64,000 nucleotides of DNA from an uncultured Gammaproteobacteria bacterium (GTDB taxonomy: Bacteria; Patescibacteriota; Microgenomatia; Daviesbacterales; UBA10151), in the NCBI GenBank assembly GCA_964640215.1, contig CAZXEW010000030.1, positions 17,920-81,919 of the forward strand, written 5' to 3'. Under the pieces are notes generated by a model. The model was given only the letters and a program-made list of their open reading frames with translations. It did no database searches and was not told the DNA's origin. Shown piece after piece: positions 4,806 to 63,300 of this stretch (position 1 is its first letter; each line of letters opens with the position of its first letter). The translations under genes and the position numbers were made by a program.

Positions 4806-5828
4806 ATGATTAATGACAAAGCTAATTTGAATCCTAAGTTGTTTGAGGAGGGTGTGGAGATGAAGCCTTCGCGGGATGGGTTTGGGGAGGGGTTGGTGTT
4901 GGCGGGGGAAGAAGACAAAAATGTAGTGGCGCTATGTGCGGATTTGACGGAGTCGACGCGGATGGAGGCGTTTAAGCAGAAATTTCCGGAACGATTTATA
5001 GAAGTGGGGGTGGCTGAGCAGAATCTGGTGACAGTTGGATCTGGGATGGCGGCGGCTGGAAAGATACCGTTTGTTAGTTCGTACGCCACATTTTCGCCGG
5101 GGCGGAATTGGGAGCAGATTCGAACAACGATTTGTTACAACAACCAGCCGGTCAAGATTGTCGGTTCTCACGCCGGTATTTCAGTCGGGCCGGATGGGGC
5201 GACGCACCAAGCGTTGGAGGATATGGCCTTGATGCGGGCGTTGCCCAATATGGTGGTGATTTGTCCGGCCGATGCCATTGAGGCGCGTAAAGCCACCCAG
5301 GCGATTGCCCGGACAAAAAAACCGACCTATTTGCGTTTGTCGCGCGATAAAGTGCCGGTAATAACAACCGAACAAACTCCCTTTGAAATAGGTAGGGCGG
5401 AAGTACTCTTTTCATCACTATCGGATACAGGGTTGAACCCTAAAGCCGATAGTGTAGCCATTATTGCCTGTGGACAGATGGTGTACAGGGCGCTGCAAGC
5501 GGCGAAAGAGTTAGGGGAGCAAAAGATTGGGGTCAGGGTGATTAACTGTCATACCATCAAGCCGTTGGATAAAGAGACGATTTTAAAGGCCGCCCAGGAG
5601 TGTGGGGCGATCGTGACAGTTGAGGAGCATCAGGTGAACGGTGGACTCGGTGGAGCGGTGGCGGAATTGGTCTCTCAACATTGCCCGGTGCCGACTAAGA
5701 TTATAGGTATTGACGATCATTTTGGCGAATCAGGGAATCCTCAGGAATTGCTAAAAAAGTTCGGCTTAACCAAGGAGGCGATTGTTAAGGGCGTTTTGCA
5801 GGTCCTGAGGATGAAACCTAATAATTAA
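4806..5828 (+). CDS. tkt: transketolase, C-terminal (pyrimidine-binding plus C-terminal domain) subunit
   Basis: GFGEGLVLAGEEDKNVVALCADL, FIEVGVAEQNLV and GSHAGISVGPDGATHQALEDMALMRALPNM are typical of the Tkt C-terminal half. Confidence 0.85.
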   Translation: MINDKANLNPKLFEEGVEMKPSRDGFGEGLVLAGEEDKNVVALCADLTESTRMEAFKQKFPERFIEVGVAEQNLVTVGSGMAAAGKIPFVSSYATFSPGRNWEQIRTTICYNNQPVKIVGSHAGISVGPDGATHQALEDMALMRALPNMVVICPADAIEARKATQAIARTKKPTYLRLSRDKVPVITTEQTPFEIGRAEVLFSSLSDTGLNPKADSVAIIACGQMVYRALQAAKELGEQKIGVRVINCHTIKPLDKETILKAAQECGAIVTVEEHQVNGGLGGAVAELVSQHCPVPTKIIGIDDHFGESGNPQELLKKFGLTKEAIVKGVLQVLRMKPNN

Positions 5829-10389: not shown

Positions 10390-10523
10390 CTAAAGCTGAG
10401 GCAGGATTTCGGTGATAGCTTGGTCAATTGTTTTGACAGTAACTCCGCTTTGTTTGATCATCTCCAGCTCGGCTGGGAAAACCGTCTAAGCTATTTTGTT
10501 TGGTTTATCAGCTAAGAAGAAAC

Positions 10524-10541
10524 TCCGACGTACGTCGGAGA
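10524..10541 (-). terminator. perfect 18-nt hairpin CTCCGACGTACGTCGGAG between convergent genes, with a T-run on the minus strand
   Basis: The palindrome reads directly. The minus strand continues TTTCTTCTT after the stem, immediately downstream of the GT2 fusion gene end at 10561. Confidence 0.5.
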
Positions 10542-10560
10542 GCTTCATTGATGGGTAATA

Positions 10561-13479
10561 TTACTTGGTGCTTATTAAAGTAGATTTTGAGGAAACAGAA
10601 TAAAGATCTTGTCCATTTTCAGACAAATCGTTTTTACCAACATAATTTTTCGTGCCTTTAAAAGTCTTTGTATAAATACCAAAATCCCAGTTGTTCTTAA
10701 TTATATTATTTGCGACCTTATTACTTGAGGCATCATCAACAAAATAAACACCAACTTTGTTATTTGTAATATTGTTGTCATTGATCTGGTTCGAATCTGT
10801 TTTTACATAAACTGCAGTTTGGTTTTGGCTAAAAATATTATTTGAAACAGTATTGTTATCTGCTTGGCCGTAAAGATATACTCCATATTGCTTATTTTTA
10901 CTAAACTCATTGAGAGTAATTTGGTTTTTTTGGGATCTGGTGTTGGCTCTGAAGCCCCTCTGATTCCCGTATATTTTATTATTCTTAACTATATTATTGC
11001 TTGAGTCATAGAAGGCAATACCGTCTTTATTACCATAAACGGTATTATTTTCGACGATATTACTATTTGAATCCCGATCCAACATTATTCCGTGGAGTTT
11101 ATTGTTGTAAGAGAGGTTATTTCTAATAATATTATTAACACATCTTTTAGAGAAAATTATTCCGTGGTTGCCATTGTTGCGAGAAATATTATTCTCAACT
11201 AAAAATCCATTTGAATCATCGTGTGGATCCAGTCCATATTGGATGTTTTCATAAAACTCATTACCTGCCCAAACCATACCAACCGCACCGTATGTATATG
11301 CTCCGAAGTAATTATGGTGGAATTTTGAATTTTTAACCTCTCCTGTTACAAAATACTTACCGGCTGTTCCATCTGGTAATTTCCAGGAAACTCCATAAGA
11401 TGAACCATCCAAACTTGAATGAGGATCAAATCCTAAGTAACCCAAATCAGAATTTAGAATATCCATTCTTGAGCTATATTTGGCCATAATAAAACTTCTG
11501 CCATCTTTGTCATTCTTATCATAGTCATTTTTAGTCGTGTCCCAAGAAGATATTCTGACCCCATCAATGTGGACATTTCCGCCCCATGTTCGAATAGATA
11601 CAAAGTTCCCAGGCTCACTCTTAAGTTTTAACCATTCAACCTCATCCTTACTTAAGTATAAAGAGACTCCTTTTTCAATCTTAAGGTTGGCTTTGAGTAG
11701 CCACTCTTTAGGTTTGGTTTGTTCAATTTTGTCATTTCCTAATTTTGTCTGTAAATCGGCCAGTTTTATTGGGTTACCTCTGCCAAAAACATGAATTGTG
11801 TTATCTTCCTTATCATAGATAATCTCAAGCTTTGTGACTTTCTTAATTGTGTATGAGTTGGTATGAGGAGACTCTAAGCTAAATTGTTGATAAGGGATGC
11901 TGAGGATTGTTCCTGGCTCAATTCTGTTCCAATTAGGTAAGATATTTAAGTTTGCTTCAACTATATCTTGAACATCTGTATCAAAAGCAACCGCAATTCC
12001 AGATAGGATATCTCCCTGCTTAACAACATATTTTTTTATTAACAAACCATTATCATTAATATAAGTTTTAGAGTCTAAATCACTAACTTGCTCTAATTTA
12101 ATATTGCTGTCTAAAACTATATTCTCAGCCTGTATTTTAGTATCTACCAGATTTTGAGCAAGCTGTCTATTCGGTTCCGGAAAAGTGAGGCCCGTTTTCT
12201 GGGAATAAACAAGTCCAGTCAGAACAAAAAGCAGTATTGCAGACATAGCATATGCTGGAACATAACTTAAAAATTTAAATTGAGGTAACCTGCTTTTATC
12301 CCATCGGGTAATCCAACTTTGAGTATTTAAAGTAAACAGAGCATATATTTTCAAAATTGCTGAAACAAATGTATACAATACATAAAAAGGTAAAATAGTT
12401 ACATGAGCGGGTCTTCTTTGTAAATGAGGGTAAATTTTAATAGCTCTTGAAATAAACCACCAAATGAAAATTAAACCTGCTCCTAAATATAGACTTAAGT
12501 AAAGAGATATTAAAAAGTAGATCGGGCTTAAAATCATGGCAAAGGCTTGAACAACTTTGTCAATTTGGTAAAACGCTAGAGCTGGATGTCTAAATGGCCA
12601 GCCTTGAAAAATTGCTCTTAAGTCTGCCCTTAAACTATTTCTAGTCCATCTGAGCCTTTGTTTCAAGTAGGATTTCAAATCAGTCATTCCCGGGGTATAT
12701 ACTCTGGCATTCTTTTGATAGGCAACCTTCCAACCACTAGCTAAAACTAAATAGGTTAATCTCTTGTCGTCTCCCGCGATAACTGGCTTACCCATAAAAG
12801 TCTCATTCACCAGCTCATCACACATTGGTAAAACAACACTTCTTCGATAAAATGCTGTTCTTCCAGATAAACAAACTAGAGCATCTCCAGCTGCAGCTAA
12901 AAAAGTAAATTCCTCGCAGTATCTTAAATCCAATTGAATATCAAACAATTTTTGAGCTAAGGTATGGGTTTGTAGCACGTTCTGTCTAGTTGTGACTCCG
13001 GCAACTTTAGGGTCAATAAACGGAGGTAGTGAGTTTTTCAGAACTGTTTCTGCCCAGAGAGTGTCTGAATCAACTAAAGCCACCAGCTCTCCCTTAGCAA
13101 TTTTAATTCCGTCAGCCAAAGCTGCTCTTTTACCAGGTTTTTTAGTAATAATTAGTTGTGTGTGAGAATAAGTTCTAGAAAATTTTCTAAAGATCTCTAT
13201 CGATTGTTTATCAGTGTAGTCAATTACAGCAATAATCTCAAAAGGAGCATTTTCTGCCCAAGAAAAAAGAGCTGCTTTAAATATACTTGGGTCTTCGTTA
13301 TAAACTGGCGTAATAATAGAAACAGACGCTTTGAAGTTATTCTTTTTAACTTTGTAAAATGATCCAATAACTTTTTTAACAACCCAAGTAAGCCAACGCC
13401 AAACTCCAATAATTCCGATTGGTAAATAAAATAGTATTATGGATAAGTAATGTTGGATGTAGGACAGTGTATTTTCCAT
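10561..13479 (-). CDS. membrane GT2 processive synthase of the HAS/NodC/chitin-synthase type, fused to a LysM domain and a C-terminal right-handed parallel beta-helix (PbH1) domain
   Basis: N-terminal TM helix. GT-A motifs: VDSDTLW (DxD), AGDDKRLT (GDDRxLT of HAS/NodC/CHS), QRLRWTRNS (QxxRW). Multiple TM helices follow the GT domain. A LysM domain (YVVKQGDILSGIAVAFDTDVQDIVEANL) is followed by ~12 NNxIxxN/GIxx beta-helix repeats. Confidence 0.8.
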   Translation of the reverse strand: MENTLSYIQHYLSIILFYLPIGIIGVWRWLTWVVKKVIGSFYKVKKNNFKASVSIITPVYNEDPSIFKAALFSWAENAPFEIIAVIDYTDKQSIEIFRKFSRTYSHTQLIITKKPGKRAALADGIKIAKGELVALVDSDTLWAETVLKNSLPPFIDPKVAGVTTRQNVLQTHTLAQKLFDIQLDLRYCEEFTFLAAAGDALVCLSGRTAFYRRSVVLPMCDELVNETFMGKPVIAGDDKRLTYLVLASGWKVAYQKNARVYTPGMTDLKSYLKQRLRWTRNSLRADLRAIFQGWPFRHPALAFYQIDKVVQAFAMILSPIYFLISLYLSLYLGAGLIFIWWFISRAIKIYPHLQRRPAHVTILPFYVLYTFVSAILKIYALFTLNTQSWITRWDKSRLPQFKFLSYVPAYAMSAILLFVLTGLVYSQKTGLTFPEPNRQLAQNLVDTKIQAENIVLDSNIKLEQVSDLDSKTYINDNGLLIKKYVVKQGDILSGIAVAFDTDVQDIVEANLNILPNWNRIEPGTILSIPYQQFSLESPHTNSYTIKKVTKLEIIYDKEDNTIHVFGRGNPIKLADLQTKLGNDKIEQTKPKEWLLKANLKIEKGVSLYLSKDEVEWLKLKSEPGNFVSIRTWGGNVHIDGVRISSWDTTKNDYDKNDKDGRSFIMAKYSSRMDILNSDLGYLGFDPHSSLDGSSYGVSWKLPDGTAGKYFVTGEVKNSKFHHNYFGAYTYGAVGMVWAGNEFYENIQYGLDPHDDSNGFLVENNISRNNGNHGIIFSKRCVNNIIRNNLSYNNKLHGIMLDRDSNSNIVENNTVYGNKDGIAFYDSSNNIVKNNKIYGNQRGFRANTRSQKNQITLNEFSKNKQYGVYLYGQADNNTVSNNIFSQNQTAVYVKTDSNQINDNNITNNKVGVYFVDDASSNKVANNIIKNNWDFGIYTKTFKGTKNYVGKNDLSENGQDLYSVSSKSTLISTK

Positions 13480-13496
13480 AAGCGTAAAAACTTAAA

Positions 13497-14414
13497 TTAA
13501 AGAGGTAAACCTGTTGTGAAAGATGAGTGAATTTTTCTAGAAGGAGTTTTGGTGTTTTTAAAGGTATTATTTACTTCTATTGTTGTCTCAAGTAGATTTG
13601 CTTCTAAACCTTTCTTTTGCGCCCAGGCTAAGAATGCCTGAGTGTCTTTTGGTAAACAAGCACCAGAGAAAGGACCAAAATCTCGGGTACCATATTTAGG
13701 GTTCCAAATACCCTCGCAGCTTTTAGTTGTAAGCTCAAACATATGGTCTGAATCAACCTTTATAGCTTTAGCAATTGTTCTCATTTCGTTAAAGAAGGTA
13801 ATCTTGAAGGCGTTAAAAAGATTATGAACGTATTTTTGCATCTCAGCTTCTATTAGGGGAACCCTGTAAATTGGACAGTTGAATTTCTGATACACTTTTT
13901 CAAGTAAGTCGCCAGATCTTTTATCAAATTCTCCAATAACAACTACCCAAGGATTTGCAAAATCTTCGACTGAGGATACTTCTCTTAAGTATTCTGGATT
14001 CATACAAACTCCAAAATCTATACCTACTTTTTTACCGGAGTATTTTTCAAGGATTTTAACAATGCTTTCGGTTGTTCCTGGAGGTACAGTACTTCTAACC
14101 ACAGCTAAGTGGTATTTTGGCATTTTTACAAGTCTTTTGCCCAAGTCTTTAGCAGCAAGTTTTATATAATCTAACTGGATTTCACCGTTAAGAGTAGGGG
14201 TTGGAACAGTAAATATAGATATATCGGTATTATTTGGTATATCAGAATCACTTGCCAGGTTGGCTATAAAACCCTGATCTTTAAGTTTCTCAATAATGTT
14301 TTGATTTACATCAATAAAGTTTATATCAAAACCCTTGGAGATAAATCCTTTTCCTGTAGCCTGGCCAACTACACCGGAACCAATGATTGATAATTTAAGT
14401 TTCTTATTTCTCAT
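13497..14414 (-). CDS. UDP-glucose/GDP-mannose 6-dehydrogenase family protein, lacking the C-terminal UDP-binding domain
   Basis: IGSGVVGQATG Rossmann motif and the catalytic-Cys motif GACLPKD (GGxCxxKD). Only 305 aa, and the stop lies 18 nt upstream of the GT2 gene. Confidence 0.7.
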   Translation of the reverse strand: MRNKKLKLSIIGSGVVGQATGKGFISKGFDINFIDVNQNIIEKLKDQGFIANLASDSDIPNNTDISIFTVPTPTLNGEIQLDYIKLAAKDLGKRLVKMPKYHLAVVRSTVPPGTTESIVKILEKYSGKKVGIDFGVCMNPEYLREVSSVEDFANPWVVVIGEFDKRSGDLLEKVYQKFNCPIYRVPLIEAEMQKYVHNLFNAFKITFFNEMRTIAKAIKVDSDHMFELTTKSCEGIWNPKYGTRDFGPFSGACLPKDTQAFLAWAQKKGLEANLLETTIEVNNTFKNTKTPSRKIHSSFTTGLPL

Positions 14415-14558
14415 TTTATTTTCTAATTTTCTATGAGCTAACTAATACAGACATATATTAAAGATTTGAGCCTAAAATATATCCAGTAGTAATTATTACA
14501 AGCTATTCTACTATAACACCAATAGTTTGTCAAGGATTAATTATAGGATACTCTTTGA

Positions 14559-15842
14559 TTAGAGTATGATCTTGCTGAGGTAGATTGGGAAGTTTAGTTC
14601 TTTAGTGGAAAAAAGAATTAAGCTGTTTTGGGTTTTAGATTGAGATAAAATATTGGGAAAAAAGGAGTCCTTCGCAATTTGAAGTTTTTCTGAGAAGGAC
14701 GCTTCAGCTTCTTTTTTAACGACTAAGTAGGATGTGCCTTCATGTGGATTATCCTCAGGAAATTCAGATTCTTTATCTGTCTCAAGCCAGGTAATAAATA
14801 AACTATTATCTATACTTACCCCTATCTGAGGAAAGAATTGAAAAGTTGCGGATTCTGACACAATTTCTGATTTTGACCAATCTTTGCCATCAAATTTTGC
14901 GTACCTAACTTGTGTTTTTCTATTACTTAGGCTAAATTCTCTCCAAGTAAGGTGTAGCCTATTTTTTGAGTCTAGTGTGACAGATAAGTGTCTGTTGTCT
15001 TGGGAGGAATTAGAAATATTTTTCCACTCAGACCAGCTGCCCCCTTCGTTTAAAGATATTGAATACCAAATTTGAGAATTATTGAGATTTTGTTTGGAGT
15101 ACATAAAAACATAAAGCAGTCCATTTTTATCCTGAATAATTGTTGGCCTGGATTGAGATCCTGATGATAAATTTATATCTTTCCAACCGGACCAATCTTT
15201 CCCATCCTTTGATTTGGAAAACTTTATCAGCTGATTATTGCTATCTTTATCTTTTCCCTCCCAGACTACAAATAAGTTATCATCCCCACCTACCAAAATA
15301 TTAGGGTGTTCCTGCCAGAGAGTTTGGTTTTTGTACCCTTCTACATAGGAAATATTAACGGCTTTCGACCAAGTTTCCCCCCCATCCTGAGAGCCAGAAT
15401 ATTTGATCTGTCGATCCCCGTCCGGGTTATTTGAATCTGCACCATACCAAATGAGATGTAGGTTATCCCTGGAATCTATAGCAATAGAGGGTACTCTTTG
15501 GCTAGCTTTATTATCAACAATGGAGACATTCTTTATAAAATCTACTTTATAGGACACGTCCCCATCTTTTTTTAATTTGGCGACAAAAATTTCATAATAA
15601 TTATTTGCTTTTTTTCTGTAAGCTACAAAAATATTCCCTTTAGAGTCAGAAACCAGTTTTTTTTGCCCACTAAAACCTAGTGCTTTATAGTCTTCTGAGA
15701 CATCGACTAAGATATTATTTATCATAAAATCTTTAGTTTCTTTCATACTTACATCCGTAGATACTTGTTTTTGAGCTGTTTTAAAAGATATCAATATAGC
15801 AGTCAGAACAACAATAATTAGTATTGGGATAATTTTTAGCAT
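14559..15842 (-). CDS. BNR/Asp-box repeat (sialidase-like beta-propeller) protein, N-terminally membrane-anchored
   Basis: Asp-box repeats SQDGGETWS, SKDGKDWS, NEGGSWSEW, DGKDWSKS. N-terminal TM helix. Confidence 0.6.
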   Translation of the reverse strand: MLKIIPILIIVVLTAILISFKTAQKQVSTDVSMKETKDFMINNILVDVSEDYKALGFSGQKKLVSDSKGNIFVAYRKKANNYYEIFVAKLKKDGDVSYKVDFIKNVSIVDNKASQRVPSIAIDSRDNLHLIWYGADSNNPDGDRQIKYSGSQDGGETWSKAVNISYVEGYKNQTLWQEHPNILVGGDDNLFVVWEGKDKDSNNQLIKFSKSKDGKDWSGWKDINLSSGSQSRPTIIQDKNGLLYVFMYSKQNLNNSQIWYSISLNEGGSWSEWKNISNSSQDNRHLSVTLDSKNRLHLTWREFSLSNRKTQVRYAKFDGKDWSKSEIVSESATFQFFPQIGVSIDNSLFITWLETDKESEFPEDNPHEGTSYLVVKKEAEASFSEKLQIAKDSFFPNILSQSKTQNSLILFSTKELNFPIYLSKIIL

Positions 15843-15956
15843 GTCGTGATTAGTGTAATAGTATCACCAAAATACCTGTTGAGATACGATCAAAGATAAA
15901 GTGGGGTATTTAGTGTTTGGCTGAATTGGTCGGATTGTTTTAGAGGAAAGTTAAAT

Positions 15957-51098: not shown

Positions 51099-52538
51099 AT
51101 GTCAATCTCAATTGAAGAAAAAGAACGTGATCGGGTAGAAAGATATGAACCTTTCAGGCGCATTCTTAAAGACGGTGAGACGAGGTTGGGGATACCTCCT
51201 GAAAGATGGTGGCGCTCGAGCGTGATGTTTCTGGAACATACTCAAAAAAAGCTAGGTAGATCACCGGCTGATTATCCGATGCCTATTCAGGAATTCTTCG
51301 GGACGTACGGTACCAAGGTGTTAGAGGTCCTGAAATGTGAAGCTAAAAGTGGTGATACCGACCATGATTTAGCGGCTCGAGCTGTTATGGTGATGCATAA
51401 AATATCAGATGTTTTGATGGCTGATGAGACTATTGACCATGAACAAAGGACAATTAGTCATCTGAGTCTTGAAGAAATTTGCACCAGGTCTGCCCGGTTT
51501 AAATTAGTTGAGACTCATGGGGCAGCAACGAATTGTCGGTTTTTAAGTATCATGTCAGATAAACGAAACAGTTGGCATAATTATCCGTTGCCCAGGACCA
51601 ATAAGGTGCTGCATAAAGGGGGAGTCGGTCGGACCATTTTAAAAATATTGGCCGGAGCCAATCCAAACACCATCGAGTCTGAGTTACCACCGAATGATTT
51701 TGATTATTTAGTTATTAAAGACAGCGAAGGCTTTAGGGATGCCAGAGAGTTAGGTGCTGATCCTGATGGTATTGAAGCTGTTGATGGCTTTGATTTACAA
51801 GAATTAATGAATAACCGCGATCTTGATATTAACAACGCATTTATCGGTCGTGACGGAATTTATTTTGCGACTGATGCCTTTGAAGCAGCCAGAACAGGTA
51901 AGATTGCAATTGTCTCAACTAAGCGGGGAATCTATGGGTCGGAAGTGTTTTATCATGATGGTGACCGAATTTTGAAAAATCGCGGTATTATGCGGCTGTT
52001 GAAAACAGTAGCCGAAAGTAAAGCGTTATCTTTTGATTTTCTACCAGTCAATCGTCAGGTAAATTTGGGAATCTACTGGTTAGTTTTAGCAAAACGGTTT
52101 GAGAGAAAGGATCAATTTCCGGTTATCATGGATCGGTTGTTTGTTTTAGGGTCCCAGATTGGCCAGGTGCCTGAAGGTGCCAGTAGTGTGATTGATGTTC
52201 TTGAAGCGGTACATACCAGGTATCCGTTTTACGATATTGATGGTGCGCCGCTTGATGGGGTTGGTGTTGCCAGGTGGTTGGGCAAAAAATTAATGAGACA
52301 GATTGATAAAAAGTACCGGGATGTCATGGATATTCCATCAATGATGCCATTGATTAGACAGCCTGGTGATACTGTTCCATACGAAGTTAACTTAGACGGT
52401 TATATAGCCGACTCACGCCGCCTGGAAGACATGAAGAAAGAGTGGGTCAATTTTATTGAACGGTGTCGACGCCGGACTGCCGATCATGTTAAAAGTTTAC
52501 AGGGTGAGGAGTACGTAGATGATGATCCGGAGGAGTAA
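51099..52538 (+). CDS. hypothetical protein with possible nucleotidyltransferase-like motif
   Basis: 479-aa ORF. LHKGGVGRTILKILAGANPNTIESELPPNDFDYLVI could be a G[GS]-x(n)-DxD NTase core. Nothing else recognised. Confidence 0.4.
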   Translation: MSISIEEKERDRVERYEPFRRILKDGETRLGIPPERWWRSSVMFLEHTQKKLGRSPADYPMPIQEFFGTYGTKVLEVLKCEAKSGDTDHDLAARAVMVMHKISDVLMADETIDHEQRTISHLSLEEICTRSARFKLVETHGAATNCRFLSIMSDKRNSWHNYPLPRTNKVLHKGGVGRTILKILAGANPNTIESELPPNDFDYLVIKDSEGFRDARELGADPDGIEAVDGFDLQELMNNRDLDINNAFIGRDGIYFATDAFEAARTGKIAIVSTKRGIYGSEVFYHDGDRILKNRGIMRLLKTVAESKALSFDFLPVNRQVNLGIYWLVLAKRFERKDQFPVIMDRLFVLGSQIGQVPEGASSVIDVLEAVHTRYPFYDIDGAPLDGVGVARWLGKKLMRQIDKKYRDVMDIPSMMPLIRQPGDTVPYEVNLDGYIADSRRLEDMKKEWVNFIERCRRRTADHVKSLQGEEYVDDDPEE

Positions 52539-52589
52539 TTAGATCTAACCCGCTTTTCAAAGCGAGATTTAATTTGTATACTCGAAAAG

Positions 52590-53225
52590 GTGCCAAGTGA
52601 AAGTTTAGCTAGTCTTGATCCCGAAACTGCTGATGCGCGTGGTGAAGCGTCGGTTGAGCATATCCGAACGATCTACTCTAATCGGCGGATATTTCCATTT
52701 ATTCAGCAAATCACGACGATAGCCCGATTTAGCGAACTTGATGGTCAAGGTGTAGATATTGTGGCAGATCTTGAATCAAATCATCCGCTGACTCAATCAC
52801 TGGATTCGTCAATTCTATATATTCAGTCAAAATCAATGGATCTTAATGTGATTAATTTCCTAAAGGCACGTCGGGCAAATGGACAACTAGAACAACCCGC
52901 TCGGCAGCCTTTAGTGGCCATTAATGGTCAAAGACCTGAAGTCGATGTTATTGGTGATACTTATACGCAGCTGTTGCTGTATATGGGATTATTGCATAAC
53001 TGTTATGAACTACAATTTCCAAATCTTTGGCAACCTGAAATTGAAGGCTTACTGGATACCTGTGGTGATGAAGCGAAGCAGATTACGCTTGATCAGCTAA
53101 ATCAGGGGATATTTCGGAGAAATAGAGGGGTAAATAGAGAGCTGGCGGCAATTGATCCCTATTTTTTTAGCCGCCGCGACGAAACACTGCAAAGATTGAC
53201 CAGGATTTTACCTACTTACCAATGA
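52590..53225 (+). CDS. hypothetical protein
   Basis: 211-aa ORF. No motifs. Confidence 0.35.
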   Translation: MPSESLASLDPETADARGEASVEHIRTIYSNRRIFPFIQQITTIARFSELDGQGVDIVADLESNHPLTQSLDSSILYIQSKSMDLNVINFLKARRANGQLEQPARQPLVAINGQRPEVDVIGDTYTQLLLYMGLLHNCYELQFPNLWQPEIEGLLDTCGDEAKQITLDQLNQGIFRRNRGVNRELAAIDPYFFSRRDETLQRLTRILPTYQ

Positions 53226-53252
53226 GATTTAGAGAGATGATATGCTTTACTT

Positions 53253-53540
53253 ATGAGTGAGACAAGTGAAGAAGTACCGCAGAATATTATTGATGAGTAT
53301 GGGGATACGATTGACCAAAATCCAAGAAGAAAGTCCTGGATTCGCGATCAGCTTGACGGAGCATTAGCGATGTTCAATTGGGCAGTTGAAAATATTAGAC
53401 GAGGTAACCATTTGCCTGTTAAACCAGGTCAAGTCACTCGAAATTTAGATGATTTAAGAAGCAAGCTTCAGAATGCGGAAGAAATAACAGTTGGAAAAAA
53501 GGGAGAAATACTTCCAAAGCCCCAAAATTCTGTAGAATAA
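53253..53540 (+). CDS. hypothetical small protein
   Basis: 95-aa ORF ending 20 nt before the tRNA-Glu 3' end. Confidence 0.35.
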   Translation: MSETSEEVPQNIIDEYGDTIDQNPRRKSWIRDQLDGALAMFNWAVENIRRGNHLPVKPGQVTRNLDDLRSKLQNAEEITVGKKGEILPKPQNSVE

Positions 53541-53559
53541 CCAGGAATAATCCTGAGCT

Positions 53560-53636
53560 TGGCACCGCTAGCGGGATTCGAACCCGCGATTTGTTGAATG
53601 AGAATCAACTGTCCTAGGCCTCTAGACGATAGCGGC
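53560..53636 (-). tRNA. tRNA-Glu (anticodon CTC), CCA encoded
   Basis: The reverse complement gives GCCGCTATCGTCTAGAGGCCTAGGACAGTTGATTCTCATTCAACAAATCGCGGGTTCGAATCCCGCTAGCGGTGCCA. There is a 7-bp acceptor stem (G1-U72 wobble). The D-arm GTCTAGAGGCCTAGGAC matches E. coli tRNA-Glu. The anticodon stem is GTTGA/TCAAC with loop TTCTCAT, and the T-arm is GCGGGTTCGAATCCCGC. Confidence 0.8.
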
Positions 53637-53638
53637 TC

Positions 53639-53820
53639 GTGTGCGAGCCAGCCGCGTTCGACGCGGCGGCTTATTAAGATGTCAAGGTTGCTACGTCTGC
53701 GAGTATTTCACTAACTATCTAGATCGTTGTCAGATAGTGCTCCATACTCTAATGACGTAGCTGCTCGCGTGCGAGCCAGCCGCGTTTGTGAAAACCACGT
53801 TTGACGTGGACGCGGCGGCG
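53639..53820. repeat. two direct copies of a GC-rich hairpin repeat (TCG(T/C)GTGCGAGCCAGCCGCGTT...ACGCGGCGGC) at 53639-53670 and 53765-53820, with an A/T-rich inverted repeat (CTATCTAGATCG...AGATAG) between them; 5' flank of tRNA-Glu
   Basis: Read directly. A third, reverse-orientation copy lies inside secA at 62272-62318. Confidence 0.55.
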
Positions 53821-53902
53821 TATCAGATTTTTTAAATCCTCATGCCTGTGGATTATACCAAATTGTCATCTCCTATCCAATTTAATCGGGTACAATGTAG
53901 GT

Positions 53903-55234
53903 ATGGGACGAATATTTGCGGGGTTTTGGTGGATGGGATTGTTTGGTTTGGCGGTCTGTTTTGGATTAATTTTTGGGATAAACGATATTTTAAAGCATGT
54001 CCCGCTTTTTCTAGTTTGGTTTGGATTGGCTTTTGTCTGTTGGGGAATGTTGATAATTGGTGTTTTGTATAGGCCGAAACCTGACTTAAAAATTCCCCTG
54101 CTAATAGTTAGTATAATAATAGTTTTGCTTTGGTTGATGCCAACGACTCTGTCGACTGATGTTTATACCTACCTGTGGGACGGGGAAACTCTGGTATCGG
54201 GGTTCAACCCCTATTTGCATAAACCTTCGGATGCGGTATTTGATGTCCGGCACTCGTCTGATTTGTATCAAAAGATATATTGGAAAGGTGAGTACACGGT
54301 TTATCCGCCGCTGGCTGAATTGGTATTTTCGATCGGGCATTATTTTTATCAATGGTTTGGGTTGGTGGGTGCCAAGATTTGGTTGAGTTTGCCAACGATC
54401 GTGTTAGCCGGGTTGTTATTTAAAGTGTTGGATCGTCGGTATTGGCTGGTTTTTGTGACCAATCCGTTACTTTTGTTTGAGTCGTTTAACGGCGGACATA
54501 TTGATGTTTGGATGATGTTGTTTGGTTGGTTGGCATATTGGTCTTACCTGCGAAAACACTACTACATATCGGCCGGCTGGTTGGGGTTGGCAACAGCGGT
54601 CAAAATAATTCCGATTGTATTTTTGCCGATTATTGCGATTGATTTAGTCAAGTCGAAAAGATGGAGGGACGGGGTCGTGTATAGTCTGTTAGTAGGTTTG
54701 ATACTGTTGGTATTTTACCTGCCGTTTATCAGTGTGTCGCTGTTTCCGGTTTTTCGTTACGTGACCTATTCAGATGTCAATGAATTTAATGCCAGTGTTT
54801 ATCGATACCTGCATTTTTTGGGTGGAATTTGGTCGGTGTTAACTCATCAAAATATTAAAATAATCTTGGCGGTCGGATTAATTTTGGGGGTAGTGGTGGT
54901 AGCAATGCGTAAGTTTTCGGTTAATAGTTTGGTTTTGGCAGGAATTATTTTTCTAATTCTGAATTCGGTAGTTTATCCTTGGTACCTGTTGTTTTTGTTG
55001 CCATTGATATTTTGGACAATTGAAAAATCGAGAGCGAATTATTGGTTTATCGAACTTTGGGTGGTGGAACTATTTTTGGCAATGACTTATTTCGACCAGA
55101 TTTCAACTAGCTTAATTTCTTATGAGCAAAAAAAGGAGATAGTTTATAAATTATCGATGATTGGTTATGGGGTGATTTTGCTGGTCGCTTGTGGACTGGT
55201 TTGGTATAACAGAAAAAATATGAGGTTGAAGTAG
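53903..55234 (+). CDS. polytopic integral membrane protein, possibly a GT-C/DUF2029-type glycosyltransferase
   Basis: ~12 TM helices. The start is placed at MGRIFAGFWWMGL (53903), not the ORF-track 53801. Confidence 0.45.
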   Translation: MGRIFAGFWWMGLFGLAVCFGLIFGINDILKHVPLFLVWFGLAFVCWGMLIIGVLYRPKPDLKIPLLIVSIIIVLLWLMPTTLSTDVYTYLWDGETLVSGFNPYLHKPSDAVFDVRHSSDLYQKIYWKGEYTVYPPLAELVFSIGHYFYQWFGLVGAKIWLSLPTIVLAGLLFKVLDRRYWLVFVTNPLLLFESFNGGHIDVWMMLFGWLAYWSYLRKHYYISAGWLGLATAVKIIPIVFLPIIAIDLVKSKRWRDGVVYSLLVGLILLVFYLPFISVSLFPVFRYVTYSDVNEFNASVYRYLHFLGGIWSVLTHQNIKIILAVGLILGVVVVAMRKFSVNSLVLAGIIFLILNSVVYPWYLLFLLPLIFWTIEKSRANYWFIELWVVELFLAMTYFDQISTSLISYEQKKEIVYKLSMIGYGVILLVACGLVWYNRKNMRLK

Positions 55235-55288: not shown

Positions 55289-56803
55289 ATGGCATTAGAG
55301 GAGGTTAAGAAAGACCGGCTCAAAAAGCTGGCGAATATCAAGAATCTGGGGATTGATCCTTATCCGGCGAAAGCGGAGCGAAAGCAAGCGGTAGCGCAAG
55401 CCTTGGATTTGTTAGGTAAAAAAGTGACCGTGGTGGGACGTATTAGGTCTCTTAGACCGCATGGCAAAATTGCCTTTGCGGATTTGGAGGATGAGTCAGG
55501 GAAGATTCAGTTGCTGTTTACGGAGATGGGTTCCCGCCTACGCGGGAATGACAGCAGAGGGAGTGGGAATGACAAGGGGAGGAGTGGGAATGACAAGAAA
55601 GAATGGAATGGAGGCGGCGGGTTTGATTTTTTGAATAATTTGGATCTCGGGGATTTTTTGGAGGCATCGGGTGAGGTTATAAAAACTCAAGCAGGGCAAA
55701 CGACGGTTCAGGTCGATGATTTTAGGTTGTTGACGAAATCTTTGCGGCCGCTGCCGGTCGAGCATTTCGGGTTGAAGGATACGGAAGAAAGATTGCGTAA
55801 GCGTTATTTAGACCTGATTTTGAATCCGGAAGTTAAAGAAATGTTTCGGCTAAAAACCAAGTTTTGGGCCAGCCTGCGCAGCTTTTTGATCGAAAAAGGC
55901 TTTTTGGAGGTTGAGACGCCGGTGCTGCAGGCGATTCCGGGAGGAGCTGATGCCCGGCCGTTTGTGACTCATCACAACGCCCAGGATATGGACCTATATT
56001 TACGGATTTCTTTGGAGCTGCCGCTGAAACGGTTACTGGTTGGCGGTTTTGAGAAGGTCTTTGAGATCGGCCGGATTTTCCGAAACGAGGGGATTGATGA
56101 CGAGCATTTGCAGGATTATACTCAACTGGAGTTTTATTGGGCGTACGCTGATTACAACCAGCTGATGGATTTTGTTCAGGAGATGTATCAGCGGGTGATA
56201 TCGGAGACTTTTGGGAGATTAACCACCAGTTGGCATGGTCATGAGATAAATTGGGAAGGTGATTGGTCGAGGATGGATTATACCCAATTGCTTGACGAAT
56301 ACTGGAAGGTGAAAACCAGTGAAATGTCGGTCGATGATTTGTATGAATTGGCCAAAAAATTAGGGGTTAATGTTGAACCGAAGCTTGGAAAGTGGCGGTT
56401 GCTGGATTATCTTTATAAAAAAACGATCCGGCCGAAAATTATTCAACCGATGTTTGTGATTAATCATCCGGTCGAGGTTGAACCACTGGCTAAACGACTG
56501 GAATCGGATCTGACCAAGGTCCAAAGGATGCAGGTTTTGGCGACCGGTTCGGAGCTTGGTAAGGGTTTTTCAGAGTTGAATGACCCGATTGATCAAAAAG
56601 AGCGGTTTGTGGAGCAGGAAAAGCTGCGTAAAGGCGGCGATGAGGAGGCCCAGATGATGGATGAAGATTTTGTCGAAGCGCTGGAGTACGGGATGCCGCC
56701 GGCGGCTGGCTTTGGGATTTCGGAGAGACTGTTTTGGAGGTTGGTTGATAAAACCGCCCGGGAATGCGTCTTTTTCCCGACGATGAGGGCTGAGAAAGAA
56801 TGA
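55289..56803 (+). CDS. lysS: lysyl-tRNA synthetase (class II) carrying a ~30-aa in-frame repeat-encoded insertion in the N-terminal OB domain
   Basis: OB-fold anticodon-binding domain, motif 2 FRNEG, motif 3 AGFGISERL. The insertion MGSRLRGNDSRGSGNDKGRSGNDKKEWNGGGG is encoded by the repeat at 55531-55594. Confidence 0.9.
   Translation: MALEEVKKDRLKKLANIKNLGIDPYPAKAERKQAVAQALDLLGKKVTVVGRIRSLRPHGKIAFADLEDESGKIQLLFTEMGSRLRGNDSRGSGNDKGRSGNDKKEWNGGGGFDFLNNLDLGDFLEASGEVIKTQAGQTTVQVDDFRLLTKSLRPLPVEHFGLKDTEERLRKRYLDLILNPEVKEMFRLKTKFWASLRSFLIEKGFLEVETPVLQAIPGGADARPFVTHHNAQDMDLYLRISLELPLKRLLVGGFEKVFEIGRIFRNEGIDDEHLQDYTQLEFYWAYADYNQLMDFVQEMYQRVISETFGRLTTSWHGHEINWEGDWSRMDYTQLLDEYWKVKTSEMSVDDLYELAKKLGVNVEPKLGKWRLLDYLYKKTIRPKIIQPMFVINHPVEVEPLAKRLESDLTKVQRMQVLATGSELGKGFSELNDPIDQKERFVEQEKLRKGGDEEAQMMDEDFVEALEYGMPPAAGFGISERLFWRLVDKTARECVFFPTMRAEKE
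55531..55594. repeat. hairpin repeat element (TTCCCGCCTACGCGGGAATGAC plus two GGGAATGAC units) inserted in-frame in lysS
   Basis: Read directly. Reading frame preserved. Confidence 0.7.
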
Positions 56804-60351: not shown

Positions 60352-63300
60352 ATGTTGAATATTTTTAATAATTTTCTAGACGCGAATAGGCGGGAGATCA
60401 ATCGGTTGAGTGCGATTGTGGTAAAGATAAATTCCTTTGACGGTAAAATAAAAAAACTGACCGATAAACAACTCAAAGAGAAAACGGCTGATTTTAAAAA
60501 GCGTCTGACAAAAGGTGAATCTCTGGTTGATTTGTTGCCAGAGTCATTCGCGGTGGTGAAAGAGGCCTTTCGGCGGACTCTCAAAATTGATTTATTTGAT
60601 GTCCAGATGATGGCGGCGATCGCGGTCCACTTGGGTAAGATTGCGGAGCAGAAGACGGGAGAGGGTAAGACTTTCTCAGTGGTGCCGGCGATTTATCTGA
60701 ATGCTTTGATCGAGCGGGGGGTGCATGTGGTGACTGTCAATGACTACTTGGCGAGGCGGGATTGCGGGTGGGTGGCGCCGGTGTTTGAGATGCTTGGTTT
60801 GAGGTGTGCGGCGATTATTCATGAAGAAGCGTTTATTTTTAATCCGAGACACAAAGCCGAAGGGATTGATGATCCGCGATTGAAACATCTTCATCCAGTG
60901 TCTCGAAAAGAGGCCTACGACGCGGATATTACCTATGGAACGAATAACGAGTTTGGCTTTGACTATTTGCGTGATAACATGGCTCATACCCTGGCGGATC
61001 AAAAACAACGGGGGCATTATTTTGCGATTGTTGACGAGGTTGACTCAATATTAATCGATGAAGCTAGGACACCGCTGATTATCTCCGCGCCAGCCCAGGA
61101 ACCGACGGATAAATATGTCCGGTTTGGTAAAGTGATTGATCAGTTGTCAGCAGCGACGGATTTTGTGGTTGATGAGAAGCTGCGGACAGCTCACTTGACC
61201 GAGCATGGGACGATCAAGATTGAGAAAATTTTGGGGGTGGAAAATTTGTATGAGAATGATTTTTCGACGCTGCATCATTTGGAAGAGGCTCTGAAAGCCC
61301 GGACGCTGTTTTCGAAAGATAAGGATTATGTGGTTCGAGACGACGAGGTGATTATTGTTGATGAGTTTACGGGGCGGTTGATGCCGGGAAGGCGGTATTC
61401 GGAAGGATTGCATCAGGCGATTGAGGCTAAGGAGGGTGTGACGATCCAGCAGGAGTCTAAGACGATGGCGACGGTTTCGTTTCAGAATTATTTTCGGATG
61501 TATGAAAAGCTAGCCGGGATGACCGGGACAGCGGCGACGGAGGCGGAGGAGTTTCATAAAATTTATAAGCTGGATGTGGTGATCGTGCCGACTAATATGC
61601 CGACCCAGCGCAAAGATCACCCGGATTCGATATTTAAAACAGTTTCAGCCAAATACACGGCGGTGGCGGAGGAGATTGGTAAAATTCATGAGAGCGGCCA
61701 GCCGGTGTTGGTAGGGACGACTTCGATTGAGAAAAATGAGTTTTTATCGGAGCTGCTGAAGCGCAAAAAGATCTCGCATGCCTTGCTGAATGCTAAAAAC
61801 CACCAACGTGAGGCGGAGATCATCGCTGATGCTGGGCAGAAGGGGTCGGTGACGGTGGCGACTAATCTAGCCGGACGAGGAGTGGATATTAAGTTGGCTA
61901 AAGGAGTGCCGGACTTGGGCGGATTGTATGTAATCGGAACCGAGCGACATGAATCGAGGCGGATTGATAATCAGCTGCGGGGGCGCTCAGGCAGGCAGGG
62001 TGATCCAGGGGCGAGTAAATTTTTCGTGTCGCTGGAAGATGATTTGATGCGGATTTTTGGTGGGGAGCAGGTGGCTAAGGTGATGAACTTTTTGAAGGTG
62101 CCGGAGGACACACCGATTGAGAACCCACTAGTGTCGCGGGCGCTGGAAGGGGCCCAGAAAAAAGTCGAGGGGCATAACTTTGATATGCGAAAACACACCG
62201 TTGAATATGACGATGTGATGAATCAGCAGCGCAAGATTATTTACGGGGTCCGCCAGCAGATTTTGGTGGCCGCGTCCACGTCGAACGTGGCTAGCGCAAA
62301 CGCGGCTGGCGCGGCGGCAAATGTGGGTTCATCTTCTGTCATTCCCGCGAAGGTCGAAGATCCCCGAACGGGGGCGGGAATCCATGGATCCCCGAACGGG
62401 GTCGGGGATGACAAAAATGTCGGCTTGAAAGACGACATTTTGGAGAAGGTCCGTAAAGAAGTTGATCAGATCGTCTCGGTTAATGCGCTGGAGGAGGTTA
62501 ATAAAGAGAAGATTATTGAGGAATTTTGCGCGATTATTCCGTTTGATGAGAACAGTCAAAAGGGGTTGGTCCAACAGTTGGGGCAGTTTAGTTCAGGAGA
62601 GCAGATTGGCGAATTTTTAGGGAAGTTGGCGATGGATCTATACGTCCAAAAGGAAAAACAAATGGGGACGGAGGCCGCTCGCCAAATCGAAACTTTTGTC
62701 TATTTGCAGACAATGGATGAGCTATGGATAGAGCATTTGGATACGGTTGATGATCTGCGGAGCGGGATTAATTTGCGGGCTTACGCGCAACGTGATCCGC
62801 TGGTCGAGTATAAGCGCGAGGCTTTTGATCTGTTTGATAAATTGATTCAGGCGATTGACAGTGCTGTAGTCCACCGGATTTACCGGGTGTCGATACCAAA
62901 TCAGCAGCCGATTATGGTCCAGCCAGTCCAGGAAATTCACCAAGAGGCTTTGGATGAAGATTTGTTGAAGGAGGAAGTTGGTCAGCTGATCAGTCCTTTA
63001 GATAGAGACTTGGAAAAATCGGATGCGAACGTACGGGTTGAACGCGATTCATCACCCGTAATTGCCGCTTCTTCTGTCATTCCCGCGGAGGCGGGAACCC
63101 AGTTAAGTCATCCTGAACTCGATTCAGGATCCGGTAATTCCAACACCCGAGTCACTATCGAGCGGGCCGGTGCTAATCCTATTGTTCAGGAAATCCGCGG
63201 CGACGGAGCCACCACCCGGACTCACGCCAAAATCGGCCGCAACGATCCCTGCTGGTGTGGGAGCGGAAAAAAATATAAAAAGTGCCACTATCCCAATTAA
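60352..63300 (+). CDS. secA: preprotein translocase ATPase SecA, with two repeat-encoded in-frame insertions
   Basis: Start placed at MLNIFNNF. DEAD-like motor DEVDSILIDEARTPLIIS. C-terminal zinc finger CWCGSGKKYKKCH. Extra segments VAASTSNVASANAAGAAANVGSSSVIPAKVEDPRTGAGIHGSPNGVGDDKNVG (62272-62412) and SSVIPAEAGT (63076-63097) are encoded by repeats. Confidence 0.9.
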   Translation: MLNIFNNFLDANRREINRLSAIVVKINSFDGKIKKLTDKQLKEKTADFKKRLTKGESLVDLLPESFAVVKEAFRRTLKIDLFDVQMMAAIAVHLGKIAEQKTGEGKTFSVVPAIYLNALIERGVHVVTVNDYLARRDCGWVAPVFEMLGLRCAAIIHEEAFIFNPRHKAEGIDDPRLKHLHPVSRKEAYDADITYGTNNEFGFDYLRDNMAHTLADQKQRGHYFAIVDEVDSILIDEARTPLIISAPAQEPTDKYVRFGKVIDQLSAATDFVVDEKLRTAHLTEHGTIKIEKILGVENLYENDFSTLHHLEEALKARTLFSKDKDYVVRDDEVIIVDEFTGRLMPGRRYSEGLHQAIEAKEGVTIQQESKTMATVSFQNYFRMYEKLAGMTGTAATEAEEFHKIYKLDVVIVPTNMPTQRKDHPDSIFKTVSAKYTAVAEEIGKIHESGQPVLVGTTSIEKNEFLSELLKRKKISHALLNAKNHQREAEIIADAGQKGSVTVATNLAGRGVDIKLAKGVPDLGGLYVIGTERHESRRIDNQLRGRSGRQGDPGASKFFVSLEDDLMRIFGGEQVAKVMNFLKVPEDTPIENPLVSRALEGAQKKVEGHNFDMRKHTVEYDDVMNQQRKIIYGVRQQILVAASTSNVASANAAGAAANVGSSSVIPAKVEDPRTGAGIHGSPNGVGDDKNVGLKDDILEKVRKEVDQIVSVNALEEVNKEKIIEEFCAIIPFDENSQKGLVQQLGQFSSGEQIGEFLGKLAMDLYVQKEKQMGTEAARQIETFVYLQTMDELWIEHLDTVDDLRSGINLRAYAQRDPLVEYKREAFDLFDKLIQAIDSAVVHRIYRVSIPNQQPIMVQPVQEIHQEALDEDLLKEEVGQLISPLDRDLEKSDANVRVERDSSPVIAASSVIPAEAGTQLSHPELDSGSGNSNTRVTIERAGANPIVQEIRGDGATTRTHAKIGRNDPCWCGSGKKYKKCHYPN
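62272..62412. repeat. two adjacent repeat elements inside secA: the GC-rich tRNA-flank family (62272-62318, reverse orientation) and the hairpin family (62338-62412, nested CCCCGAACGGGG hairpins)
   Basis: Read directly. Frame preserved across both. Confidence 0.7.
63076..63097. repeat. hairpin repeat core GTCATTCCCGCGGAGGCGGGAA inside the secA C-terminal linker
   Basis: Identical core to the copy at 21832-21854. Confidence 0.65.

Follow-up and report, generated by a model that had tools for sequence, protein, structure and literature searches.

The window, by which the whole 64-kb stretch of DNA analysed is meant, is a contig of Candidatus Daviesbacteria, within the Microgenomates of the Candidate Phyla Radiation (CPR). 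Two direct copies of a GC-rich double hairpin lie on the 5' side of its tRNA-Glu gene, and a third, inverted copy lies in frame within secA. These repeats are linked here to one conserved structured element of 37 nt, named M, which recurs in groundwater Microgenomates. The SecA encoded in the window is 100% identical to NCBI protein P0001; the remaining close SecA matches are 60–69% identical, and those with a named source are all Daviesbacteria or Microgenomates. The features at the two sites are as follows (H2, second hairpin of M; R1, covariance model of M).

53541..53556, minus strand: terminator-like hairpin directly after tRNA-Glu
53560..53636, minus strand: tRNA-Glu (anticodon CTC), CCA encoded (ARAGORN; Rfam tRNA, 59.9 bits)
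53634..53670, plus strand: repeat copy 1 (M, simple form; R1, 51.1 bits)
53690..53761, minus strand: 72-nt imperfect hairpin between the copies (-29.3 kcal/mol, z=-5.15)
53758..53823, plus strand: repeat copy 2 (M, nested variant; covariance model, folds as predicted)
53795..53809, plus strand: inner hairpin CCACGT-TTG-ACGTGG in the H2 loop of copy 2
53852..53879, minus strand: promoter-like site (TGGATA, 16-nt spacer, TG-extended TATAAT; 10/12 match with TG)
60352..63300, plus strand: secA, intact open reading frame (ORF), 982 aa from the second ATG, all SecA Pfam domains present
62266..62421, plus strand: in-frame SecA insertion VAASTSNVASANAAGAAANVGSSSVIPAKVEDPRTGAGIHGSPNGVGDDKNV (alignment of 120 SecA proteins)
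62269..62318, minus strand: repeat copy 3 within secA (R1, 17.1 bits)

A single tRNA, tRNA-Glu(CTC), was placed in the window by ARAGORN and Rfam; because the gene is on the minus strand, 53637-53902 is its 5' flank. Read on the tRNA strand, the order is promoter-like site, copy 2, 72-nt hairpin, 19-nt spacer, copy 1, tRNA-Glu, and terminator-like hairpin. The promoter-like match is the only one within 53400-54000, and because it precedes both copies these are predicted to lie in a transcribed leader of ~210 nt. TTGACG in the hairpins was also considered as a -35 box and was rejected, there being no -10 box at a fitting spacing.

The two direct copies named in the preliminary description exist, with limits slightly wider than first noted: copy 1 spans 53630-53674 (core 53634-53670) and copy 2 53758-53823 (core 53762-53819). 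The matching parts are 53630-53658 with 53758-53786 (29 nt, 93%) and 53660-53674 with 53809-53823 (15 nt, 93%; E=6e-6 within the window), and copy 2 has about 23 extra bases mid-element. On the plus strand the hairpins of both copies read GGCTCG-YGTG-CGAGCC, A, GCCGCGT-loop-ACGCGGC, GGC. Copy 1 is made up of a first hairpin H1' GGCTCGTGTGCGAGCC (53634-53649), A, H2 GCCGCGTTCGACGCGGC (53651-53667), and GGC; its initial GGC is the complement of tRNA nt 1-3. Copy 2 is made up of H1' TGCTCGCGTGCGAGCC (53762-53777), A at 53778, and the H2 arms GCCGCGT (53779-53785) and ACGCGGC (53810-53816), with GGC trailing; the extra hairpin stands within the H2 loop, has the CGT-TYG-ACG core of M's own hairpins, and is nested in the same way in the secA copy.

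Within the window, GCCAGCCGCG is found exactly four times, three times as the repeat copies and once as a chance match in a Lon-like gene at 41272; with at most one mismatch there are eight matches against 1.9 expected, and CGTTYGACG is observed four times against 0.6 expected. Model R1 was built from 22 sequences with copy 1 among them, so that the score of copy 1 (51.1 bits) is partly so by construction; copy 2 reaches 31.3 bits (E=1.8e-4) or, without filters, 20.8 bits, and copy 3 17.1 bits. A covariance-model search of the window with filters off returned these three sites and no further copy. One other assembly holds sequence from this region: L001 (Logan ERR3478687 contig, 1788 nt) corresponds to about window 51851-53638 and stops 2 nt past the tRNA-Glu 5' end, precisely where copy 1 starts, which, as far as the sequence goes, fits an assembly break at the repeat or hairpin.

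All that separates the copies is an 84-nt hairpin-forming stretch; the A/T-rich inverted repeat reported earlier between them corresponds to the 72-nt hairpin (z about -5.2). A stretch beginning 3 nt upstream of this hairpin on the tRNA strand, GCAGCTACGTCATTAGAG, resembles the first 18 nt of tRNA-Glu with a score reached by 45 of 5000 shuffles (p about 0.01); over the whole length the likeness is not significant (169 of 2000 shuffles, p about 0.08). On these figures the idea of the hairpin as a decayed tRNA-Glu copy is weakly supported and was set aside. It is probably the relic of a duplicated 5' part of the tRNA, partly palindromised. An 11-mer of the hairpin, ATTAGAGTATG, recurs in the spacer between two tRNA genes of the Daviesbacteria relative L177, where two tandem tRNA-Glu(CTC) genes occupy the syntenic site (1788-2100, minus strand) and the leader contains both a GTCATCCTGAGC..GAAGGATC hairpin and a palindrome of perfect type, 38 nt long (TTGACAAGTCAAATAG...TTTGACTTGTCA).

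The direct repeat is not confined to M: at one end it runs into the tRNA, whose first 7 nt are included as their complement (TAGCGGC vs. TAGCTGC), and at the far side it continues for about 10 nt. Because it thus extends beyond M on both sides, the leader pair would most simply have arisen by tandem duplication of a unit of upstream bases, M, and the start of tRNA-Glu; two separate insertions at two tRNA starts may have given the same arrangement. The preliminary description had suggested an old integration or recombination site, and the two halves of that suggestion fared differently. A local recombination or duplication event is supported, in a weaker form, by the reach of the repeat over 7, perhaps 18, nt at the start of the tRNA and by the tandem tRNA-Glu genes of L177. 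An integration scar is not: there is no integrase or transposase in 42.8-59.9 kb and no duplicated tRNA 3' portion in the window, and the copies are 84 nt apart. We consider it very improbable that the direct repeats are scars, like attL and attR, of a former integrative element. Integration at tRNA genes is common, relic tRNA halves beside intact tRNA-Pro and tRNA-Cys at other CPR loci are suggestive of repeated integration, and Pfam has no match for three ORFs located 3' of the tRNA; set against this, the duplicated part is the 5' end of the tRNA (7-18 nt) and not its 3' portion, no other tRNA-Glu fragment is found in the window, and the repeat unit is itself dispersed. The three ORFs (479, 211, and 95 aa) are consecutive on the plus strand at 51099-53540.

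The third copy was described earlier as inverted in secA and adjoining hairpins of another family, and this holds: 62269-62313 matches copy 2 over 45 nt (87%, E=1e-9 in the window). Copy 3 has no H1; it consists of H2 with a nested hairpin (GCCGCGT CCACGTCGAACGTGG CTAGCGCAA ACGCGGC) followed by TGGC GCGGCGGC, shares the extra internal hairpin of copy 2, and is translated as AASTSNVASANAAGAAA. The SecA insert is composite, copy 3 being followed by the other hairpin family (GTCATTCCCGCGAAGG.., GTCATTCCCGCGRAGG...), and the peptide of the insert region is AASTSNVASANAAGAAANVG. In the 120-sequence alignment the SecA of the window has 51 residues between QQIL and GLK where its 119 relatives usually have 9-12. 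The family relation and the in-frame insertion of the preliminary description are both supported; the net gain is about 40 aa, where ~45 aa had been noted. The insert is absent from all 119 relatives and falls where the match to a solved SecA structure breaks, that to Thermotoga maritima SecA (3DIN) breaking off at residue 665 and restarting at 714 on either side of it. We take this position to be where the long scaffold helix meets the helical wing domain.

The QQIL-GLK stretch (around residues 636-692 in the window) is an insertion hot spot across Daviesbacteria, with unrelated, low-complexity inserts of 10–60 aa in many lineages. Some of these hold the peptides VIPSEARNP, VIASEAKQS..IATPRQGGARND, and SLRGGSAADRRSNLL, which, compared as peptides, resemble the VIPA.. 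peptides of hairpin family 1 of the window. Family 1, the other hairpin family of the secA insert (GTCATTCCCGCGRAGGCGGGAATC(T/C)A), is more abundant than the repeat at tRNA-Glu and is present seven times (starts of a 16-nt match: 21831, 22782, 40378, 47883, 55537, 62338, and 63076), often preceded by partial GTCATTCCC repeats. Two of its copies are in secA (62338 and 63076; peptides SSVIPAK../SSVIPAEAGTQ) and one in a class II aminoacyl-tRNA synthetase gene (55289-56803); the secA copy has another hairpin, GATCCCCGAACGGGG, nested in its loop.

M itself (~35-37 nt) reads (G)C GGCACGT-CAA-ACGTGCC, A, GCCGCGT-TTG-ACGCGGC G(C), or 58 nt with a nested hairpin; no GTAG occurs in its consensus, GCGGCACGTCAAACGTGCCAGCCGCGTTTGACGCGGCGC. 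Each half is a 7-bp palindrome, and the halves are inverted versions of each other (hairpin 1 vs. the reverse complement of hairpin 2, 14/18 identical; inverted 9-mer cores CGTCAAACG and CGTTTGACG), which makes M nearly a palindrome of two palindromes. Copy 1 of the window aligns to M from end to end with all differences in hairpin 1, among them a compensatory A-T to T-A swap. The metagenomic loci were found through the exact 21-mer GCCAGCCGCGTTYGACGCGGC, and the set is biased toward that sequence: it occurs in 51 metagenome contigs, about 38 of them low in GC and from several independent groundwater and sediment projects; nearly all low-GC contigs carry both hairpins, and eight of the 51 loci are GC-rich chance matches without the second hairpin. 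These contigs carry no taxonomy, and their CPR origin is suggested by GC content, sample type, the label of L034, intron-bearing rRNA, and SecA similarity. Species-representative genomes were scanned with the gapped pattern GCCAGCCGCGTT N0-30 ACGCGGC, which is too permissive, the matches listed being mostly chance matches in GC-rich genomes; among them is one low-GC Microgenomates metagenome-assembled genome (MAG), L034, in which GCCAGCCGCGTTTGACGCGGC abuts the 5' end of tRNA-Cys with the second hairpin before it. All told, M stands at about 30 distinct sites in other CPR genomes, and the motif is not unique to the three sites of the window, in agreement with the mobile-repeat interpretation first offered.

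Across 20 distinct copies, 97.9% of stem cells are paired and five pairs are changed on both sides, a result equalled by none of 500 shuffles. Compensated variants are GAAACGT/ACGTTTC with GCCGAGT/ACTCGGC at the tRNA-Cys of L125, GGCAAGT/ACTTGCC in L147, GTCGCGT/ACGCGAC downstream of tRNA-Arg in L142, and GGCTCG/CGAGCC in the window. Conservation is highest in the loops and the pairs that close them (GT-CAA-AC and GT-TTG-AC). Nested hairpins of the same type are found in H1 of L162 and L169 and in copies 2 and 3 of the window. Four of the six reading frames of M are open. In Rfam the loci matched only tRNA, large and small subunit rRNA, and group II intron models, none of which covers M; a full-text sequence search of papers did not find the M sequence; and no copy of the exact 21-mer is present among the viral contigs of IMG/VR, which gives M no link to phages.

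At 10 distinct metagenomic junctions M abuts the mature tRNA 5' end with an overlap of 2-3 nt: tRNA-Cys in L034, L126/L149, and L168, with a diverged, fully compensated copy in L125; tRNA-Gly(TCC) in L128, L151, and L162, with a decayed copy in L142, several mismatches deep, beside an apparently intact tRNA; tRNA-Arg(TCT) in L142; and tRNA-Ile(TAT) in L140. Tandem copies are present in the tRNA-Cys leader of L125 also. M further follows the D-arm directly within tRNA-Pro 5' halves (L135, L159, L160, L169, and L174) and within a tRNA-Ile fragment (L125/L154), and precedes a 5' fragment of tRNA-Cys in L130. Of about 28 full copies that are distinct, roughly 19 are in contact with a tRNA gene or a fragment of one, an association far beyond the genome share of tRNA genes.

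Other copies lie within a 23S rRNA group I intron, in frame near the N-terminus of its LAGLIDADG ORF and in three sequence variants; in frame in the SecA C-terminal linker of L166 (SecA 51% identical to that of the window; position differs), in peptide deformylase (L173), and in a GT2 glycosyltransferase (L170); and between genes (L136, L145/146, and L147). The three protein copies share a sub-variant, GGCAC[C/T]GTCAAACGTGCC, with an extra hairpin 1 base and a GATCRGC flank, and their host proteins presumably have about 12 or more extra residues at the point of M. Within ORFs, M occurs in both orientations and several frames.

Several of these loci have features of their own. The 23S intron, of group I type, follows ...GUAACUAU (helix 69-71 region); it is found in L141 (1-3651, minus strand, M at 1106-1146) and in L124, L137, L150, L153, L157, L158, and L163, M lying in the N-terminal region of the ORF (MSISAPRQTRLARSTCRTISRK...LAGFVEGEGSF), and L141 also has a group II intron domain match between rRNA genes. 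The 21-mer of hairpin 2 occurs alone, without hairpin 1 and in frame as AASNAAG, in L131, L132/138/152, L148/167/172, L164, and L171 (DNA ligase, transketolase, CarA, diphosphomevalonate decarboxylase, and a repeat protein, on low-GC contigs); at least in CarA and the decarboxylase it seems to replace native residues at unchanged length, by chance, as solo hairpins, or by conversion. In L154 (92-140) and L125, near-identical contigs with the same flanks, the anticodon-loop region of the tRNA-Ile fragment differs by a 34-nt GC-rich hairpin (CCCTCCTTCGCGTAAAAAGCTTCGGAGGGCGCAG), which on sequence comparison would be a presence/absence polymorphism of another hairpin element. Relic tRNA halves surround an intact tRNA of the same identity in L135 (about 770-1000, minus strand), L160 (600-880), L130 (2100-2390), and L179 (about 5530-5707). 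The complete tRNA-Pro of L135 has on one side a 5' half of tRNA-Pro, with acceptor CGGGGAG and breaking off at the anticodon, and on the other a 3' half with acceptor CTCCCCG; tail and leader are complementary (GAAATGAC/GTCATTTC and CCCGCC/GGGCAGG). A split, trans-joined tRNA-Pro as in Nanoarchaeum was considered for L135 and L160 and rejected: the acceptors match in L135 and not in L160, and the T-loop of the L135 3' half is aberrant (TGCGA). The halves are more likely relics of repeated insertion or replacement events.

M may not have been transposed as a unit, similar hairpins instead arising and spreading through recombination and repair. Replication slippage or tandem duplication at a hairpin could have made the leader pair, and ectopic gene conversion the secA copy. 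Several features speak for such an origin: the direct repeat reaches about 10 nt upstream and 7-18 nt into the start of the tRNA; L177 has its tRNA-Glu genes in tandem; the secA copy is without hairpin 1 and clean ends; and the hairpins within hairpin loops (copies 2 and 3, L162, and L169) fit palindrome growth by template switching. Near-identical 37-nt units at about 30 unrelated sites, including three proteins with a common sub-variant, are left unexplained by it, and as an account of the whole we think it decidedly unlikely. Slippage may well explain the local tandem pair, in which role it is compatible with a selfish element.

Filled sites can be compared with empty ones. A comparison of the tRNA-Glu flank with related genomes, as proposed earlier, was made with four Daviesbacteria relatives (SecA 65–69%), which keep a syntenic tRNA-Glu(CTC) upstream of aminoacyl-tRNA synthetase genes and secA; M is absent from the orthologous leader in all four. 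The tRNA-Glu of L122 is preceded, at 10 nt, by an extended -10 box, and the upstream regions of the other three are short and without M. The 105 kb of these relatives contain no M anywhere and no CGTTYGACG-type cores. A GT87-like membrane protein encoded at 53903-55234 in the window is missing from the syntenic region of the relatives (L122, L175, L176, and L177). M is likewise absent from three tRNA-Cys loci chosen independently of it, by way of the major facilitator superfamily gene that neighbors the tRNA-Cys of L034 (one of them, L178, having otherwise the gene arrangement of L034), and is missing at tRNA-Gly(TCC) and tRNA-Arg(TCT) in L169 and at tRNA-Arg(TCT) in L151.

The tRNA genes of CPR loci (L034, L128, L151, L162, L168, and L169) typically have a TG-extended -10 box (TGGTACAAT/TATAAT) 9-15 nt before the mature 5' end, and because of this spacing the tRNA precursors must have leaders of a few nt unless an M-like insert is present. 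In M-bearing genes M comes right after a GC, GGC, or GCC (the window having GCC), and the -10 box stands 5-18 nt before these bases, a spacing like that at empty tRNA genes. The end of M repeats the bases, there as nt 1-2/3 of the tRNA; this repeat is seen at 12 of 12 tRNA junctions. To judge from sequence, the pattern looks like insertion at the tRNA start with duplication of 2-3 nt. The 5' flanks of M end in C (GGC, AGC, CGC, AAC, TCC, CCC, and TAC), with no longer motif in common.

The position of M right at the RNase P site, with its last 2-3 nt serving as tRNA nt 1-3, would also suit a functional cis-acting RNA module of tRNA precursors that aids processing, stability, or folding, the other copies being by-products of recombination. 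The RNase P RNAs of CPR bacteria are unusual (PMC8172020). All 10 metagenomic tRNA junctions have the same orientation, a bias not claimed to be significant because they represent only about four independent tRNA types. M is near-identical at tRNA-Cys in L034, L168, L126, and L130 beside wholly different leaders, and the stems covary, the diverged and fully compensated tRNA-Cys copy of L125 included. Against such a module, M is absent from all four orthologous tRNA-Glu leaders, from all three sampled tRNA-Cys loci, and, at other loci, from tRNA-Gly and tRNA-Arg. In the window its orientation is opposite to that of the tRNA; in ORFs it is found in both orientations and several frames, and at an apparently intact tRNA-Gly (L142) it has decayed. 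We judge this function unlikely.

Conserved inverted 9-mer cores, shared across species in coding and non-coding DNA, could alternatively be a signal at the DNA level, such as a pair of uptake sequences or a protein-binding palindrome, kept by selection; CPR bacteria do carry competence genes. The density is far too low for an uptake signal (four cores in 64 kb, none in 105 kb of relatives), and that idea was dropped on this count; symmetric compensatory changes in the stems point to base pairing in a single strand and not to recognition of a fixed duplex. A DNA signal of either sort is the most improbable of the explanations weighed.

The reading we favor, with a probability of roughly 0.55, is that M is a small non-autonomous selfish palindromic insertion element of CPR/Microgenomates with a preference for the starts of tRNA genes. 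We infer its mobility, its target preference, the removal of the leader by RNase P, and tandem duplication as the origin of the leader pair; mobility, because near-identical units occur in unrelated contexts and genomes, because a derived nested form is common to two loci of the source genome, and because there are context-specific sub-variants and filled as well as empty orthologous sites. Copying of M to a new place would usually occur at a C^GC position, its preferred target being the first 2-3 nt of tRNA genes, just downstream of promoters. In the window the two tandem copies of M stand downstream of an extended -10 promoter and ahead of the mature tRNA-Glu(CTC) 5' end. Such an insertion should cost little because RNase P, whose RNA is present in CPR bacteria (PMC8172020), should remove the whole leader. 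The nested variant would then have been copied into secA along with another hairpin family and may persist there because it is in frame, four of the six frames of M being open, and in a poorly conserved stretch of the protein. Elsewhere dead tRNA fragments, the termini of introns and ORFs, and tolerant protein loops may have let copies persist.

Several observations weigh against a selfish element. No transposase, integrase, or REP-associated tyrosine transposase (RAYT; REP, repetitive extragenic palindrome) was found among 23 ORFs screened, which lie at 9.4-17.6 kb and, over about 17 kb surrounding the tRNA, at 42.8-59.9 kb. Copy number is low, with three copies in the 64 kb of the window and about three extra copies in roughly 270 kb of other loci, the repeat search and copy count in the source organism covering the window. 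A GC flank is found at 14 of 20 sites of all kinds, and the 2-3-nt repeat may just be part of M. The near-invariance of M at tRNA-Cys within wholly diverged leaders could mean functional selection; the invariance of hairpin 2 is largely due to the search by its exact sequence. Finally, M in the window is inverted relative to the tRNA as compared with all metagenomic tRNA junctions.

A further-reaching form of the proposal, that M represents a new minimal class of bacterial mobile element (about 35 nt, protein-less) targeting the first nucleotides of tRNAs, is tentative and to our mind somewhat unlikely. Insertion into the single-stranded transcription bubble of almost leaderless, highly expressed tRNA genes is a possible route, and re-insertion of a leader released by RNase P another. 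M would then stand as the first bacterial parallel to the elements that target tRNA genes in compact eukaryotic genomes, and in CPR bacteria it would drive both the turnover of tRNA genes and insertions into protein loops.

Away from these sites, a low-GC island at 10500-15900 (0.34-0.375 vs. about 0.45) has a GC skew near zero; outside it the skew of the window is unusually strong and positive (0.2-0.4). The island encodes envelope and polysaccharide proteins on the minus strand (a 971-aa GT2-LysM-beta-helix protein, a UDP-glucose dehydrogenase fragment-like ORF, and a BNR protein) and was probably acquired horizontally.

To our knowledge, how selfish DNA survives in tiny, gene-dense CPR genomes, and where their lineage-specific protein insertions come from, is poorly understood. 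If the tRNA preference is real, M would show that bacterial elements, too, use tRNA genes as a safe haven; it would lengthen the tRNA leaders that RNase P has to deal with, and it would directly supply essential proteins such as SecA, peptide deformylase, and homing endonucleases with new stretches of peptide. On the practical side, M may break assemblies, and in CPR MAGs it gives rise to spurious ORFs and to tRNA calls that are missed or split.

By analogy, M appears to resemble in its working REPINs (REP doublets), Rickettsia palindromic elements (RPEs), mitochondrial double-hairpin elements (DHEs) and GC clusters, and miniature inverted-repeat transposable elements (MITEs); the traits that define each of these are in part absent from M and in part not shown for it. 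Like REPs and REPINs it is a short GC-rich imperfect palindrome in an inverted doublet, with hairpins kept by compensatory change; those elements are extragenic, present in hundreds of copies, headed by GTAG, and tied to RAYTs, whereas M is ~37 nt and low-copy, lies in ORFs and RNA genes as well, has no GTAG, and is accompanied by no RAYT in the ORFs screened. The preference for tRNA starts is a trait of M and not of REPs. RPEs share with M the in-frame palindromic inserts that leave ORFs intact and are translated as an extra peptide, and their occurrence in RNA genes and intergenic regions; they are 100-150 bp (RPE-1 to RPE-8), confined to Rickettsia, and without known targeting of tRNA starts, whereas M is three to four times shorter and belongs to CPR bacteria, a separation that goes by length and host.

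The mitochondrial elements (DHEs of Allomyces, GC clusters of yeast, and repetitive hairpin-forming elements of sponges; PMC2800124) are likewise two adjacent short hairpins, protein-less and inferred to be mobile, and like M they occur between genes, in introns and the ORFs of introns, and where structural RNA genes are variable; they differ in belonging to organelle genomes, in their sequences, and in having no reported preference for the first bases of tRNA genes. MITEs such as the Correia elements of Neisseria are, like M, non-autonomous and essentially inverted terminal repeats, perhaps with a short flank duplication, and can be co-transcribed with their neighbors and alter them; they usually measure 100-400 bp and have clear terminal inverted repeats and target site duplications and a related autonomous insertion sequence (IS). 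M has terminal inverted repeats in the form of its two 17-nt halves, its 2-3-nt flank repeat is unproven as a duplication, and no related IS was seen in the loci examined for M, no search having been aimed at a parent IS. Palindrome-associated transposable elements (PATE) derived from IS200/IS605 insert 3' of a fixed tetra- or pentanucleotide; the flanks of M end in C and share nothing longer.

Integrative elements at tRNA genes resemble the window in having a direct repeat that adjoins the tRNA and includes a few of its bases; their att repeats duplicate the 3' portion of the tRNA and bracket an island with an integrase, whereas in the window it is the 5' end that is repeated, with 84 nt between the copies and no integrase in 42.8-59.9 kb. 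The tRNA-targeting retrotransposons (TRE and DGLT-A of Dictyostelium and Ty3 of yeast; PMC5006619) are long, autonomous, reverse-transcribing, and guided by Pol III factors, whereas M is a passive bacterial element of 37 nt; what they have in common with M is the logic, the 5' side of tRNA genes being used as a safe haven in a gene-dense genome.

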